In this document: in pieces, positions 1 to 34,542 of the stretch
Position numbering within the stretch: position 1 is the first letter of the stretch
Layout: the number at the start of each line of letters is the position of its first letter
Source: Escherichia coli
GTDB taxonomy: Bacteria; Pseudomonadota; Gammaproteobacteria; Enterobacterales; Enterobacteriaceae
NCBI RefSeq assembly: GCF_024700885.2
Contig: NZ_CP117016.1
Reading direction: 5' to 3' (one strand)
DNA length: 64,000 bases
The notes under the pieces: generated by a model
Seen by the model: only the letters and a program-made list of their open reading frames with translations
Database searches by the model: none
What the model was told of the DNA's origin: nothing
Program-made: the position numbers and the translations under genes

Positions 1-256
1 GCATAGTGAAAACCAAAGTAAAGGTGTGCATTATGCAAAATCACAGCGTCTCTTAGAAATTAATCATGCGCACTTGCATTTAATGGAATTATTGGATGAA
101 GGGAAGAAACACAATATTTTTAAGGCAGATAGCGACCCATTGCAGGTGAATATTAATATTGCTGCGCTTGGGGGATATTATTTGATCAACCAGCATACGC
201 TTGGCCTGGTTTATCCAGTGCGCCGTAAAACCCCGTCCTTCAGGGCGGGGATATAA
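1..256 (+). CDS. 3' portion of a regulator-like gene entering from the window edge (possibly ytfA-like); last ~10 codons are encoded by the IS left-end hairpin
   Basis: Frame is open from position 2 with no upstream stop; ORF track lists 26..256; stop at 254-256 lies just after the hairpin at 231-250. Family assignment is a guess from the translated fragment. Confidence 0.35.
231..250. repeat. IS200/IS605 left-end subterminal imperfect palindrome (CCCCGTCC-TTCA-GGGCGGGG)
   Basis: 8-bp stem with one T-G mismatch and TTCA loop, read directly from sequence. Confidence 0.6.
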
Positions 257-271
257 GGCGCGGTTTTCCAC

Positions 272-703
272 CTAACCAGGTGTTTGCTGTTGTTCAATGT
301 ATTGACGGATGGCGGATATTGGCGCACCTCCGCAGCTACTGGCAAAATAGCCAGGACTCCACAAAACGCCTTTGTAGTAATACCTGACTGCAATATCTGG
401 TCGATCTCGTCGCAGTAACCTACTCGATACGCCTTTGAGGCTGTTTACCAGACTGGATATCGCCAGTTTGGGAGGATAGTTAATTAACAAATGGACGTGA
501 TCTGGTTCGCCATCCATTTCAACCAGTTCAGCTTCAAAATCAGCACATACCTTTGAAAAGTAAGTGCGTAGTTTTTCTTTCGCGTCATGGTCAAAAATCT
601 GGCGTCGGTATTTGGTGACAAAGACCAGGTGAACATGCATCAGGAAAACACAATGCTTTCCACGCCGGATATCGGTTTCTTTTTTCACAGACCAAAGTAT
701 CAT
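272..703 (-). CDS. tnpA: IS200-like Y1 (HUH) transposase TnpA
   Basis: 143-aa ORF with HVH motif (DHVHLLINYPP), KYRR motif and C-terminal catalytic-type Tyr (IRQYIEQQ); size typical of IS200 TnpA. Confidence 0.85.
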   Translation of the reverse strand: MILWSVKKETDIRRGKHCVFLMHVHLVFVTKYRRQIFDHDAKEKLRTYFSKVCADFEAELVEMDGEPDHVHLLINYPPKLAISSLVNSLKGVSSRLLRRDRPDIAVRYYYKGVLWSPGYFASSCGGAPISAIRQYIEQQQTPG

Positions 704-710
704 TTGACCT

Positions 711-1919
711 GTGAAACGATTACAGGCATTTAAATTCCAGTTAAGACCAGGTGGTCAACAGGAGTGTGAAATGAGGCGCTTCGCAGGCGCATGTCGTTTC
801 GTTTTCAATCGTGCTCTGGCGCTTCAGAATGAGAATCATGAGGCCGGTAATAAATACATCCCTTACGGGAAAATGGCTTCCTGGTTGGTTGAGTGGAAAA
901 ATGCCACTGAAACGCAATGGCTTAAAGATTCTCCCTCACAGCCATTGCAACAGTCACTGAAAGACCTTGAGCGGGCTTACAAAAACTTCTTCCGGAAGCG
1001 GGCTGCTTTTCCCCGATTCAAAAAGCGGGGACAGAATGATGCATTCCGCTACCCGCAGGGCGTTAAGCTCGATCAGGAAAACAGCCGTATTTTTCTGCCG
1101 AAACTTGGCTGGATGCGCTACCGGAACAGCCGTCAGGTCACGGGTGTTGTAAAAAATGTCACTGTCAGCCAGTCCTGCGGTAAGTGGTACATCAGTATTC
1201 AGACAGAAAGTGAAGTATCAACTCCGGATCACCCTTCAGCATCAATGGTCGGGCTGGATGCTGGCGTGGCTAAACTCGCCACGCTGTCAGATGGCACAGT
1301 CTTTGAGCCTGTAAACAGTTTTCAGAAAAACCAGAAGACGCTGGCGAGACTTCAGCGACAGTTAAGCCGCAAGGTCAAATTCAGCAACAACTGGCAGAAG
1401 CAGAAACGCAAAATACAGCGACTGCATTCCTGTATCGCAAATATCCGCAGGGACTACCTTCACAAAGTCACAACGACCGTCAGCAAAAACCACGCAATGA
1501 TAGTCATTGAGGATTTGAAGGTCAGCAACATGTCAAAGTCAGCAGCGGGTACGGTCAGCCAGCCGGGGCGCAATGTCCGGGCAAAATCAGGTTTAAACCG
1601 TTCGATACTGGATCAGGGCTGGTATGAAATGCGCCGCCAGCTTGAGTACAAGCAGCTCTGGCGTGGCGGTCAGGTGCTTGCTGTTCCGCCAGCGTACACA
1701 AGCCAGCGTTGCGCGTGCTGTGGTCATACAGCGAAAGAAAATCGCCTGTCACAAAGTAAATTCAGATGCCAGGCATGTGGATATACAGCGAACGCTGATG
1801 TAAATGGCGCTCGTAACATTTTAGCGGCGGGGCACGCCGTTCTTGCCTGTGGAGAGATGGTGCAGTCAGGCCGCTCGTTGAAGCAGGAACCCACCGAAAT
1901 GATTCAGGCGACAGCCTGA
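711..1919 (+). CDS. tnpB: TnpB (OrfB) RNA-guided endonuclease homolog, IS605/IS1341 type
   Basis: 402-aa ORF with RuvC-I (GLDAGV), RuvC-II (IVIEDLKV), Cys-rich zinc finger (CACCGH...CQACGY) and RuvC-III ([10 protein letters not shown]) motifs, all apparently intact. Confidence 0.9.
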
Positions 1920-1975
1920 ACGTAGCAGGGATCCACGTCCTTCAGGGCGTGGAGGATGTCAACATATCAGTATGG
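1780..1975 (+). ncRNA. Predicted omega-RNA (reRNA) scaffold plus flank-derived guide for TnpB (inferred, not demonstrated)
   Basis: By analogy with characterised TnpB systems, where the guide RNA derives from the tnpB 3' end and right end; the RE hairpin at 1932-1953 lies in this span. Confidence 0.25.
1932..1953. repeat. IS200/IS605 right-end subterminal imperfect palindrome (TCCACGTCC-TTCA-GGGCGTGGA)
   Basis: 9-bp stem with one T-G mismatch at the same relative position as in the left-end hairpin, same TTCA loop. Confidence 0.6.
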
Positions 1976-2053
1976 TTTCCCCCCAGGCACTGGAAGCCAG
2001 ACGTAAGGTCATCAAAGAGACGCTCCTTAGCTGGCTTTTGGTTGATTCTTCAT

Positions 2054-2728
2054 CTACCGCGCACGAATAAAACTGCCATCCGGCTGGCGGGTAAACAGGA
2101 CCTGTTGATTATTCCCCGTATCAATGGTTAAGCCCGTCACCACGCCGCTGGCGTTCTGGCGGATTTTCACCATCTGCCCGTTTTGCAAATTACTCAGCGG
2201 CTTACCCGCGCCTTCTACCTGCGCCATTGCATAGACATCGGTAGCGGGCAGTCCGTGGTCGCGGAACAGCTGCGCCATCGTTTTACCGGGTTCGACACGA
2301 TAGGAGCGCCATTGATTATCAATTCCGCTATCTGGCTGGAATGGTTGCGTTTGGGTGGTTTGCGGCTGCTCTTCTGGCTGGCCTTCCTGTATAGGTTCTG
2401 GAGCGAGCGGAGCCACCTGATCAGGATCATTTTGTGGCGTGACTAATTGCGCCCGCAGCTGTTCTTCTGTCGGTGGTTGTGATTGCGACTGAATATCTAA
2501 CTGTGCTTCACGCGTCACCACCGGCGCGTTGGGCGTATCATCAGATGGAAGCAGAAATCCGACCACCAATACAATGGCGGCAATAATGATCCCCCGACGA
2601 TGCATCTGCGGCAGCGGGTCCATGAAGCGAAAATTGTCCGGCGCGTGCCAGACTTTCTCCAGGGTTGGTTTTAGTTCAAAGCGCCCGGGCATGGTTTCCT
2701 CCTGCTCCGCGTCTTGTTCCTCAATCAT
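2054..2728 (-). CDS. ytfB: YtfB-like OapA-domain membrane protein (cell-division associated)
   Basis: 224-aa ORF with N-terminal TM segment, Pro/Gln-rich linker and C-terminal OapA-like domain; position next to fklB matches the E. coli gene order. Confidence 0.8.
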
Positions 2729-2909
2729 AGCCTATGAATATGCTAACGCTATGATGTCCGTGGTAAACCCGCCTTTATTATATTCATACGGGATATTGCT
2801 ATTGTTTCTTTTTCCCCGGGATTTGTCATCATTCCCGCGACAAAGTTTTACCCAAAGAAGTGTGGCTGATATGCTGCCCGCTACTTTATACCCTAAGAAA
2901 GGAAATACG

Positions 2910-3530
2910 ATGACCACCCCAACTTTTGACACCATCGAAGCGCAAGCAAGCTACGGCATTGGTTTGCAGGTAGGGCAACAACTGAGTGAATCTGGCCTGG
3001 AAGGGCTGCTGCCAGAAGCACTGGTTGCAGGCATTGCCGATGCGCTGGAAGGCAAACATCCGGCTGTTCCGGTTGATGTGGTGCACCGCGCGCTGCGTGA
3101 AATCCACGAACGCGCCGATGCCGTTCGTCGTCAGCGTTTCCAGGCGATGGCTGCTGAAGGTGTGAAATACCTGGAAGAAAACGCCAAAAAAGAAGGTGTA
3201 AATAGCACCGAATCTGGCCTGCAATTCCGCGTGATCAACCAGGGCGAAGGCGCAATTCCGGCACGTACCGACCGCGTTCGTGTTCATTACACCGGAAAAC
3301 TGATCGACGGCACCGTGTTTGACAGCTCCGTCGCTCGCGGCGAGCCCGCTGAATTCCCGGTTAACGGCGTGATCCCTGGCTGGATTGAAGCACTGACTCT
3401 GATGCCGGTAGGTTCTAAATGGGAACTGACTATCCCGCAGGAACTGGCATATGGCGAGCGTGGCGCAGGCGCGTCCATCCCTCCGTTCAGCACCCTGGTG
3501 TTTGAAGTCGAACTGCTGGAAATCCTCTAA
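2910..3530 (+). CDS. fklB: FKBP-type peptidyl-prolyl cis-trans isomerase FklB
   Basis: Start chosen at internal ATG ([20 protein letters not shown]...) 127 codons into the 2529..3530 ORF, giving the expected 206 aa; purine-rich RBS upstream. Confidence 0.9.
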
Positions 3531-21852: not shown

Positions 21853-22194
21853 ATGCGAATATTTGTCTACGGCAGTTTACGCCACAAACAAGGCAACAGT
21901 CACTGGATGACCAATGCCCAGTTACTGGGCGATTTCAGTATCGATAACTACCAGTTGTATAGCCTGGGCCACTATCCAGGCGCAGTTCCGGGGAACGGAA
22001 CAGTACACGGTGAAGTTTATCGTATTGACAACGCCACGCTGGCCGAACTTGATGCCTTGCGCACCAGGGGCGGTGAATACGCGCGCCAGTTGATTCAGAC
22101 GCCGTACGGGAGTGCATGGATGTACGTTTATCAACGACCCGTCGATGGATTAAAGCTAATTGAAAGCGGCGACTGGTTAGACAGGGATAAGTAA
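21853..22194 (+). CDS. ytfP: Gamma-glutamylcyclotransferase-like protein YtfP
   Basis: 113-aa ORF starting 3 nt after the tamB stop. Confidence 0.9.
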   Translation: MRIFVYGSLRHKQGNSHWMTNAQLLGDFSIDNYQLYSLGHYPGAVPGNGTVHGEVYRIDNATLAELDALRTRGGEYARQLIQTPYGSAWMYVYQRPVDGLKLIESGDWLDRDK

Positions 22195-22204
22195 CCATAC
22201 GCAT

Positions 22205-22232
22205 ACGCCACCTTCGGGTGGCGTTGTTTTTT
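22205..22232 (+). terminator. Rho-independent terminator after ytfP
   Basis: GC stem (ACGCCACC-TTCG-GGTGGCGT) followed by a T-run. Confidence 0.7.
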
Positions 22233-22373
22233 GCGAAACGACTCGCATTCTGTTTTGTAATTCCCTCACCTTTTGCTTTTCTCTCCGAGCCGCTTTCCAT
22301 ATCTGTTAACGCATAAAAAACTCTGCTGGCGTTCACAAATGCGCAGGGGTAAAACGTTTCCTGTAGCACCGTG

Positions 22374-22392
22374 AGTTATACTTTGTATAACT
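22374..22392. promoter_or_regulatory. Candidate chpSB operator: perfect 8-bp inverted repeat AGTTATAC-TTT-GTATAACT
   Basis: Palindrome 14-30 bp upstream of the chpS start, overlapping the RBS-proximal promoter region. Confidence 0.45.
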
Positions 22393-22405
22393 TAAGGAGG
22401 TGCAG

Positions 22406-22657
22406 ATGCGTATTACCATAAAAAGATGGGGGAACAGTTCAGGTATGGTCATTCCTAATGTTGTGATGAAAGAACTTAACTTACGGCCGGGGCAGAGCGT
22501 GGAGGCGCAAGTGAGCAACAATCAACTGATTCTGACACCCATCTCCAGGCGCTACTCGCTTGATGAACTGCTGGCACAGTGTGACATGAACGCCACGGAA
22601 CTTAGCGAGCAGGATGTCTGGGGTAAATCCACCCCTGCGGGTGACGAAATATGGTAA
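22406..22657 (+). CDS. chpS: Antitoxin ChpS (ChpBI), MazE/AbrB-like
   Basis: Start at ATG (MRITIKRWGNSSG...) with AAGGAGG RBS about 5 nt upstream. Confidence 0.9.
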   Translation: MRITIKRWGNSSGMVIPNVVMKELNLRPGQSVEAQVSNNQLILTPISRRYSLDELLAQCDMNATELSEQDVWGKSTPAGDEIW

Positions 22658-23001
22658 AGAAAAGTGAATTTGAACGGGGAGACATTGTGCTGGTTGGCTT
22701 TGATCCAGCAAGCGGCCATGAACAGCAAGGTGCTGGTCGACCTGCGCTTGTGCTCTCCGTTCAAGCCTTTAATCAACTGGGAATGACGCTGGTGGCCCCC
22801 ATTACGCAGGGCGGAAATTTTGCCCGTTATGCCGGATTTAGCGTTCCTTTACATTGCGAAGAAGGCGATGTGCACGGCGTGGTGCTGGTGAATCAGGTGC
22901 GGATGATGGATCTACGCGCCCGGCTGGCAAAGCGTATTGGTCTGGCTGCGGGTGAGGTGGTGGAAGAGGCGTTATTACGTTTGCAGGCGGTGGTGGAATA
23001 A
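22651..23001 (+). CDS. chpB: Toxin ChpB (ChpBK), MazF-family endoribonuclease
   Basis: 116-aa ORF overlapping the chpS 3' end by 7 nt. Confidence 0.95.
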   Translation: MVKKSEFERGDIVLVGFDPASGHEQQGAGRPALVLSVQAFNQLGMTLVAPITQGGNFARYAGFSVPLHCEEGDVHGVVLVNQVRMMDLRARLAKRIGLAAGEVVEEALLRLQAVVE

Positions 23002-23079
23002 GGTGTGTTTATTTATCGCGGGCATAAAAAACCCCTACTAACCGAAGCCCGGCGTTCAGGGTTATTACGCTAGAAGAAC

Positions 23080-23610
23080 TTATTTATTCTTTGCGCGCTC
23101 GAAGGAGGCAACGATTTCAGCTTTAGCGGCTTCTGCGTTTTCCCAGCCTTCAACTTTCACCCACTTGCCTTTTTCGAGGTCTTTGTAGTGCTCGAAGAAG
23201 TGAGCGATCTGTGCTTTCAGCAGTTCAGGCAGATCGTTAACGTCTTTAATGTGATCGTATTCTTTGCTCAGCTTGCTGTGCGGAACCGCAACCAGTTTCG
23301 CATCTTCACCGGCTTCGTCGGTCATTTTCAGAACGCCAACAGGACGGCAACGGATCACAGAACCCGGCTGCAGCGGGTACGGAGTCGGGACCAGTACGTC
23401 AACCGGGTCACCGTCCAGAGACAGGGTGTGGTTGATGTAACCGTAGTTGCACGGATAGAACATCGCGGTGGACATGAAGCGGTCAACGAACAGTGCGCCG
23501 CTCTCTTTGTCGATTTCGTATTTGATCGGATCTGCGTTAGCCGGGATCTCAATAACAACGTAGATGTCTTCCGGCAGATCTTTACCCGCAGGGACGTTGA
23601 GTAAGCTCAT
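23080..23610 (-). CDS. ppa: Inorganic pyrophosphatase
   Basis: 176-aa ORF recognised as Ppa. Confidence 0.95.
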
Positions 23611-33961: not shown

Positions 33962-33996
33962 ATGTAATGCATATGTAATGCTATAATGCATTACAC
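33962..33996. promoter_or_regulatory. Candidate operator/promoter of the relBE-like pair: repeated TGTAATGC motifs and palindrome TAATGCATTA overlapping a TATAAT -10 box
   Basis: Repeat motifs read directly from sequence 25-60 bp upstream of the antitoxin start. Confidence 0.4.
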
Positions 33997-34019: not shown

Positions 34020-34262
34020 ATGGCCACACTTAACGTCCGCCTGGATGACAAACTGAAAAATGAGGCTTATGCGGTGCTGGAAAAATTAAATATCACGCCT
34101 ACTGAAGCAGTGCGACTGCTGTTTCAGTACGTTGCGGAAAATGGACGAATGCCGGTAAAAACGCTCACTGTCAGTGATAGTGAAGAAGCCTTGTTACGCA
34201 CTGTCAGGGAACGACTGGCCAACCCACAAGAGGCCATTAAGGTCCGACTGGATGAACTATGA
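34020..34262 (+). CDS. RelB/DinJ-family antitoxin (relB paralog)
   Basis: 80-aa ORF resembling E. coli RelB as I remember it; RBS GGAGG upstream. Confidence 0.8.
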   Translation: MATLNVRLDDKLKNEAYAVLEKLNITPTEAVRLLFQYVAENGRMPVKTLTVSDSEEALLRTVRERLANPQEAIKVRLDEL

Positions 34263-34542
34263 GCTGGCGTTTGATCCGCGGGCGCTGAAAGAGTGGCAAA
34301 AACTGGGCGTGACAGTCCGGGAACAATTTAAAAAAAAGCTTGAGGATGTGCTGAAAAGGCCGCGCAATCCATCGGCTAAACTGCGGGATTTACCGGACTG
34401 CTACAAAATTAAGCTGCGCACACAGGGATATCGCCTGGTTTATCAGGTTAACGATAAAGAGTTGCTCGTGTTGGTGATAGCTATTGGTAAGAGAGAGAAC
34501 TCAGCCGTTTATGAAGACGCGACTAAACGGCTGGATGAGTGA
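34252..34542 (+). CDS. RelE/ParE-family mRNA interferase toxin (relE paralog)
   Basis: 96-aa ORF starting at MNYELAFDPRALKEW..., overlapping the antitoxin by 11 nt; strongly RelE-like (PDCYKIKLR, GYRLVYQV motifs). Confidence 0.85.
   Translation: MNYELAFDPRALKEWQKLGVTVREQFKKKLEDVLKRPRNPSAKLRDLPDCYKIKLRTQGYRLVYQVNDKELLVLVIAIGKRENSAVYEDATKRLDE

Follow-up and report, generated by a model that had tools for sequence, protein, structure and literature searches.

The chpSB locus and the inverted repeat ahead of chpS

The window considered in this work is a 64-kb stretch of the Escherichia coli chromosome, in which the RefSeq annotation displays the gene order tamB-ytfP-chpS-chpB-ppa. The region tested is 100% identical to that of E. 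coli strain 7/2 (NZ_CP023820.1). The antitoxin gene chpS (22406-22657) and the toxin gene chpB (22651-23001) are both located on the plus strand, overlap by 7 nt and are annotated by RefSeq as encoding an AbrB/MazE/SpoVT family antitoxin and a PemK/MazF-family endoribonuclease, respectively. ChpS matches PF04014 (MazE/AbrB-type antitoxin) with E = 1.5e-11 and 44.5 bits, for a cut-off of 24.7, and ChpB matches PF02452 (PemK/MazF toxin) with E = 3.7e-25 and 88.7 bits. The solved structures nearest to ChpS by sequence are MazE chains of the PDB, and the protein displays an AbrB/MazE-type DNA-binding domain in which the KRWGNS loop, common to MazE, is kept. The upstream gene ytfP ends at 22194. 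A terminator scan marked two terminator-like hairpins after it on the plus strand (22205-22247; individually 22205-22224 and 22232-22247), between chpSB and upstream transcription; the T-run and the second hairpin are partly conserved in orthologues. At the far left of the window (1-2083), an IS200/IS605-type tnpA pseudogene and an intact TnpB/InsQ gene split a TetR/AcrR-family regulator gene according to RefSeq.

Immediately upstream of chpS, an inverted repeat is found at 22374-22392, composed of the arms AGTTATAC (22374-22381) and GTATAACT (22385-22392) on either side of TTT (22382-22384). A perfect 8-bp inverted repeat had been announced just upstream of chpS by an earlier, sequence-only reading, and the letters bear this out: an arm-length script returned perfectly complementary arms of length 8, which can be extended neither outward (G22373 facing T22393) nor inward. 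The ATG of chpS (22406) lies 13 nt 3' of the end of the palindrome, and the interval contains the Shine-Dalgarno sequence AAGGAGG (22394-22400, plus strand), which adjoins the repeat and is placed 5 nt before the start codon. The K-12-type coordinates of the palindrome are 4448415-4448433. Its reading as an intrinsic terminator or attenuator finds no support in the terminator scan, which marks only the two hairpins following ytfP, and the sequence that comes after the A+T-rich stem is TAAGGAGG.

Repeats with perfect 8-bp arms and a spacer of at most 10 nt amount to 39 nested matches in the window, or about 20 distinct loci, and 13.7 +/- 4.8 are expected from first-order Markov simulations of the same window. 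Any given stretch of 50-60 nt has about a 1% chance of containing a repeat with 8-bp arms, so that the chpS repeat, taken alone, is unremarkable. Its placement and the comparative evidence detailed below lift it well beyond chance. A search for GTTATA-N(3-8)-TATAAC with 0 or 1 mismatch returned a single match in the whole window, located at 22375-22391 and free of mismatches in both hexamers.

The chpSB module is present in only 3097 of the 5426 complete E. coli genomes, and the 111-nt region surrounding the palindrome is at least 99% identical in 3086 of these 3097. In strain YPE12, which lacks chpSB (locus L005, 1545-1925), the upstream DNA is kept as far as GGGGTAAAACG (window 22205-22356); the palindrome and chpS are missing, and decayed fragments of chpB remain (window 22704-22769 at 80% identity, and 22991-23080). 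The absence of chpSB in this strain is a decay by deletion (window 22357-22990) and not an empty insertion site.

Conservation and kinship with parD region I

The ChpS family is isolated: in a representative search, relatives were found at 94% and 63% identity, the next ones not exceeding 44%. Species-representative genomes were scanned for orthologues using as query an alignment of 6 sequences sharing the ELLAQCD motif. Orthologues at 67-94% identity are found in E. whittamii, two other Escherichia species, Enterobacter asburiae, Lelliottia, Trabulsiella, Kluyvera, strain RIT691 and Cedecea. The tamB-ytfP left flank is common to Lelliottia and E. coli. The relative at 63% identity originates from metagenome contigs with unrelated flanks, yet it displays GGTTATACTTTGTATAACT ahead of its Shine-Dalgarno sequence. 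The orthologues at 63-94% identity, which represent eight other genera or species (E. whittamii, Enterobacter, Lelliottia, Trabulsiella, Kluyvera, Cedecea, strain RIT691 and a metagenome contig), differ by no more than one change in the core GTTATACT(T/A)TGT(A/C)TAAC, whereas the intergenic DNA on either side has diverged; the core is almost unchanged over 10 orthologous loci. The most conserved 17-nt window starts at 22375 and scores 0.985, versus an upstream median of 0.62; it corresponds to the 17-bp core GTTATAC-TTT-GTATAAC (GTTATACTTTGTATAAC, 22375-22391), whose half-sites GTTATA and TATAAC are separated by 5 bp. Uncompensated single changes affect one arm in Trabulsiella (right arm GTCTAAC) and in Cedecea (left arm TTTATAC).

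The same hexamers are known from an operator that has been studied by experiment. In the parD locus of plasmid R1, both Kis and Kid-Kis shield "region I", GTTATATTTAAATATAAC, from hydroxyl radicals (PMC1865072). Using footprinting, gel shift and native mass spectrometry, Monti et al. established that dimeric Kis and Kid-Kis complexes bind region I (PMC1865072). This binding is sequence-specific and is strengthened by Kid in a ratio-dependent manner (PMC1865072; summary in PMC4803016); in parD, the -10 element overlaps with the left half of the site (PMC1865072). The outer half-sites GTTATA and TATAAC of the chpS palindrome are identical to those of region I. ChpS and plasmid PemI/Kis share 37% identity. 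The region upstream of pemI reads ...GGATGTTATATTTAAATATAACTTTTATGGAGGTGAAGAATG, and the alignment of the two loci from the palindrome through the Shine-Dalgarno sequence to the ATG opposes GTTATATTTAAATATAACTTTTATGGAGGTGAAGAATG (pemI) to GTTATACTTTGTATAACTTAAGGAGGTGCAGATG (chpS). As the outer hexamers are the same and the similarity extends up to the start codon, the chpS site represents the counterpart of parD region I. Further features are shared with parD/pemIK of plasmids R1 and R100: a perfect palindrome immediately precedes the Shine-Dalgarno sequence of the antitoxin, a TATAnn hexamer resembling a -10 element is present within the left arm, and an AbrB-fold antitoxin is paired with a toxin of the PemK/MazF family.

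A number of differences nevertheless separate the two sites. The hexamers stand 6 bp apart in parD, forming an even palindrome of 18 bp, versus 5 bp in chpS and all its orthologues; with N5 in place of N6, the chpS site is filed here as a spacing variant of the Kis/PemI-type operator. The parD locus possesses a region II, a weaker pseudo-palindrome 33 bp upstream, beyond the -35 element, of which chpS shows no recognisable equivalent: allowing up to 2 mismatches, the 100 nt ahead of chpS contain no further GTTATA/TATAAC site, and all that resembles a half-site there is an isolated GTAAAAC at 22348-22354. The DNA-binding loop is KRWGNS in ChpS and KRVGGS in Kis. Finally, binding has been proven by experiment for parD, while its chpS counterpart is known from sequence comparison.

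The survey was extended to 67 distant relatives at 34-45% identity, originating from Proteobacteria, Acidobacteria, Deinococcus, Actinobacteria and Desulfobacterota. Upstream of these antitoxin genes, the best inverted repeat usually reads (A)GTTATA...TATAAC(T) and stands 10-35 nt ahead of the start codon. With at most 2 mismatches and within 100 nt upstream, GTTATA-Nk-TATAAC was detected at 63 of 77 related antitoxin loci versus 0 of 154 control stretches, and the best inverted repeat comprised 9 or more paired bases in 13 upstream regions, versus 0 coding controls and 1 shuffled control. A common motif coinciding with parD region I was previously described by Chopra et al. (2013) directly upstream of 76 of 79 AbrB-antitoxin modules (PMC3879964). 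The signal of the present survey agrees with this generic upstream motif of AbrB-linked MazF-family modules. What Chopra et al. report is a generic gapped repeat with a 4-base palindrome; chpSB, the N5/N6 split and the flank complementarity described below are not singled out in that study (PMC3879964).

The spacing of the hexamers is 6 bp in 44 loci, including parD (PemI-type), and 5 bp in 15, among them chpS and every one of its orthologues. When the antitoxins were arranged in a neighbour-joining tree, the N6 loci made up the PemI clade, with the N-terminus MHTTxLRKVGGS. The N5 loci were placed in a separate clade with a MazE-like loop, (K/R)(K/R)(W/F)GNS, and ChpS belongs here and not to the RKVGGS clade; the transfer of Kis specificity to ChpS is therefore indirect. 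Thus, chpS joins Kis-type half-sites to a MazE-type loop and a one-base-pair contraction. Other repeats are also observed upstream of antitoxins of the same clade: MazE-like ATCTACA/GTAGAT inverted repeats at loci L018, L034 and L064 (antitoxin start at about 1201), and direct repeats of TGTTGAACA at L025 and of TGTTTAACA at L071. Since the upstream repeats differ among antitoxins with KRWGNS or RKFGNS loops, the type of operator changes within the clade.

The mazEF operator is an 'alternating palindrome' (sites c-a-b) that overlaps the promoter and at which MazF strengthens the binding of MazE (PMC4333400). Like the site proposed for chpS, it serves an AbrB-fold antitoxin whose DNA-binding loop is KRWGNS. 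Its sequence is unrelated and its organisation different, with ATCTACA arms, an ATATAT centre, three sites over 47 bp and two promoters, in contrast to the single GTTATAC dyad of chpS; the sequence upstream of chpS was read for mazEF-type ATCTACA arms and an ATATAT centre, and both are absent. A further module of the window, a relB/relE-like pair located between cybC and nrdG (34020-34542), encodes a RelB family antitoxin (PF04221). It is preceded by two direct copies of TGTAATGC (33963-33970 and 33974-33981) and an inverted copy, GCATTACA (33988-33995), which flank TATAAT (33982-33987); the repeats at 33963-33995 are likely to form a RelB-type operator over the promoter of the pair. The earlier claim that chpSB and the relBE-like pair use unrelated operators holds at the sequence level: as the repeats are different and the antitoxins belong to different families (RelB versus AbrB/MazE), the candidate operators of both modules appear unrelated.

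Promoter candidates and flank complementarity

A literature search returned no published account of a characterised chpSB operator or promoter, on which the reviews are silent, and no mapped transcription start; the rows listed in the start-site tables of three genome-wide studies include neither chpS nor its coordinates. The best candidate for a -10 element is TATACT (22377-22382, plus strand), located within the left arm in a parD-like layout and matching the consensus at 5 of 6 positions. Two promoter elements of parD, a TGn-extended -10 and, at 17 nt, the -35 TGGTGT, are missing from E. coli chpS: the -35 hexamer of a parD-like promoter would match the consensus at 1 of 6 positions, and a consensus promoter scan called no site on the chpS strand. 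In the N6 relatives, TTGnnn occurs exactly 17 nt upstream of the left-arm TATAnn, as in parD, with a mean TTGACA match of 2.68 versus about 1.4 elsewhere. Four ChpS orthologues present ATGACA, ATGCCA or ATGACT 16 nt ahead of TATACT.

An alternative candidate lies further upstream on the plus strand (22326-22355), where the blocks CTGG (22326-22329) and tAaAAc (22350-22355), 18 nt apart, are conserved. Their invariant columns are C100, G102, G103, A125, A127 and A128 of alignment A3, and their spacing, examined by eye, is fixed across the orthologues. These blocks could constitute a weak alternative promoter with a candidate start near 22362; the GTAAAAC or GTAGAAC present here resembles the right half-site GTATAAC, and the blocks could instead be what remains of a half-site. 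The CTGG block was also considered as part of a sigma-54 promoter, an idea that was rejected: on inspection by eye, the GG-to-GC spacing exceeds the required length by one base in E. coli and varies among the orthologues.

The palindrome is embedded in an extended imperfect dyad (22361-22405, plus strand) whose left flank pairs with the right flank containing the Shine-Dalgarno sequence, as seen by RNA folding and shuffling. Folded as RNA, a 61-nt stretch reaches -19.8 kcal/mol (z = -3.3) in a predicted hairpin spanning 22361-22405 in which the Shine-Dalgarno sequence is paired; the core stem of the palindrome alone is weak (-3.6 kcal/mol). When the non-conserved left flank was paired with the right flank in ten orthologues, the summed fold energy amounted to -186.6 versus -114.8 +/- 9.7 for shuffled flanks, a value reached by 0 of 500 shuffles, and the in-register Watson-Crick matches of the flanks numbered 63 versus 37.7 +/- 4.9. 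Flank complementarity is seen in ChpS-type loci (62/132 versus 44.6 +/- 4.8) and is absent from 42 PemI-type loci (146/504 versus 141.8 +/- 8.9). Compared with the antisense strand, the sense strand yields folds that are more stable by an average of 4.9 kcal/mol. RNAalifold keeps only 9 core pairs, none of them with compensatory changes; as the flanks pair in different registers, nothing but the palindrome core is retained, and column-wise covariation was dropped as support for the extended hairpin. An excess of G.U pairs (G.T in the DNA), also considered as evidence of pairing at the RNA level, was set aside as well, the count of 24 versus a null of 21.3 being explained by base composition. 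Rfam covariance models searched over 22150-22700 gave 0 matches at E values up to 1. Fold-back inhibition of read-through transcripts, a leader hairpin and a neutral extension of the palindrome are all conceivable readings of the flank complementarity.

In one genome, that of the O111:H2 strain 08-3342 (locus L088, equivalent to 22362-22405 of the window), the usual left flank is replaced by CTGCACCTCCTTAA, which copies the right flank exactly in reverse complement; the resulting palindrome has perfect arms of 21 bp around a 3-bp centre and covers the Shine-Dalgarno sequence. The substitutions are clustered and the allele is a singleton (1 of 5426 genomes). It looks like the product of one template-switch event (quasipalindrome correction) or is possibly an assembly artefact; its interpretation as a selected state was dropped for its singleton occurrence. 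The cleavage motif of ChpB is reported as UAC or ACY (ACD) (PMC3827094, PMC10305079, PMC5888573). Such motifs, UAC/ACU, would be present in both arms if transcribed (22379-22382 and 22389-22392), which matters only with a start upstream of the palindrome.

Probable autoregulation of chpSB and alternative readings

The sequence-only reading had proposed the palindrome as a likely autoregulatory operator of the ChpS-ChpB complex. This proposal gains support from the half-sites of parD, the core kept in the orthologues, the 63 of 77 loci versus 0 of 154 controls and the AbrB/MazE-type nature of ChpS. Taken together, the homology with a footprinted site, the conservation of the core and its recurrence throughout the family make the operator reading a well-supported inference, and the palindrome at 22374-22392 is very probably the autoregulatory operator of the chpSB operon. 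No published experiment on the binding of ChpS or ChpS-ChpB to the palindrome DNA was found.

The proposed mechanism can be summarized as follows. A ChpS dimer would bind the palindrome through its N-terminal AbrB/MazE-type domain, with one half-site (GTTATA or TATAAC) per monomer, the centres of the half-sites being 11 bp apart, or about one helical turn. ChpB would act as a co-repressor, probably by tightening the binding of ChpS, and repression would be set by the toxin:antitoxin ratio, as for Kis-Kid. The operator overlaps both the left-arm TATACT, which is the best candidate for a -10 element, and the presumed start region, so that RNA polymerase would be denied access by the bound repressor. 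Were the promoter located further upstream, the bound repressor would form a roadblock to elongation at about +13 to +31. A protein sitting on the palindrome would thus repress under either promoter layout.

A different explanation would place the functional element in the RNA hairpin at 22361-22405, acting instead of or besides the DNA site by hiding the Shine-Dalgarno sequence of chpS. The hairpin could belong to a native leader starting near 22362 from the conserved CTGG-18-TAAAAC blocks, or form in ytfP read-through transcripts only, translation being limited to transcripts that start inside the palindrome. The latter variant is modelled on IS10, for which fold-back inhibition of read-through transcripts was reportedly described by Davis, Simons and Kleckner in 1985. 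As in IS10, the inverted repeat of chpS lies over the likely start site, its 3' half contains the ribosome-binding site in silico, and an occluding hairpin is possible only in transcripts begun upstream; the likeness is an in silico resemblance only. The fold energy of the 61-nt stretch, a flank pairing exceeding that of all 500 shuffles, the confinement of this effect to ChpS-type loci, the better folding of the sense strand and the fixed spacing of the upstream blocks all speak for such a hairpin. They have to be weighed against the lack of compensatory changes among the 9 pairs retained by RNAalifold, the compositional origin of the G.T excess, the weakness of the core stem and the absence of a matching Rfam family. 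Moreover, the TTT loop and every base of the core are conserved, which a hairpin does not need, the upstream hexamers are poor (3/6 and 4/6, with no T at -7), and orthologues with the strong ATGACA-16-TATACT promoter would begin their transcripts inside the palindrome. The hairpin as the functional element is judged rather unlikely.

The core could also be conserved merely as a core promoter, comprising the -10, the discriminator and the start site, in which case the dyad would be incidental or the product of a template switch and no repressor would bind it. The presence of TATACT within the left arm fits this view, and mutation alone can extend palindromes, as illustrated by the 21-bp arms of the O111:H2 genome. 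However, conservation is just as strong in the right arm GTATAAC, which has no promoter role, as in the left one, symmetric half-sites recur at the 63 of 77 distant loci despite differing central spacers, and the equivalent site of parD is physically bound by the antitoxin; this explanation is held to be very improbable. An equally slim chance is given to a palindrome used mainly by another regulator, either a plasmid-borne PemI/Kis by cross-regulation or MazE. The chpS hexamers are indeed identical to those of the Kis operator, and the KRWGNS loop is common to ChpS and MazE, but the N5 spacing differs from that of all PemI-type sites (N6), the palindrome is conserved in chromosomes whatever their plasmid content, and MazE-type relatives have other repeats (ATCTACA, at loci L018, L034 and L064).

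An autoregulatory operator bound by ChpS or ChpS-ChpB is thus the reading retained here. A broader proposal, considered doubtful, is that the ChpS clade has remodelled a Kis-type operator by combining the N5 spacing with the KRWGNS loop and by placing the invariant core within a lineage-variable dyad of about 45 nt that provides control at the RNA level. The RNA layer would then either silence ytfP read-through by IS10-like fold-back or gate the translation of a native leader. The shared hexamers could also permit operator-level cross-talk with plasmid-borne PemI/Kis.

The chpSB module is a classic chromosomal toxin-antitoxin locus of E. coli, and its palindrome is now placed as the counterpart of parD region I. 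The N5 and N6 sites constitute a natural test case for the reading of half-site spacing by AbrB-fold dimers, and for the insulation of chromosomal and plasmid modules residing in the same cell. If the flank complementarity is without function, the chpS palindrome is an ordinary autoregulatory operator; if it is functional, the control of a type II toxin-antitoxin module would gain a new layer.
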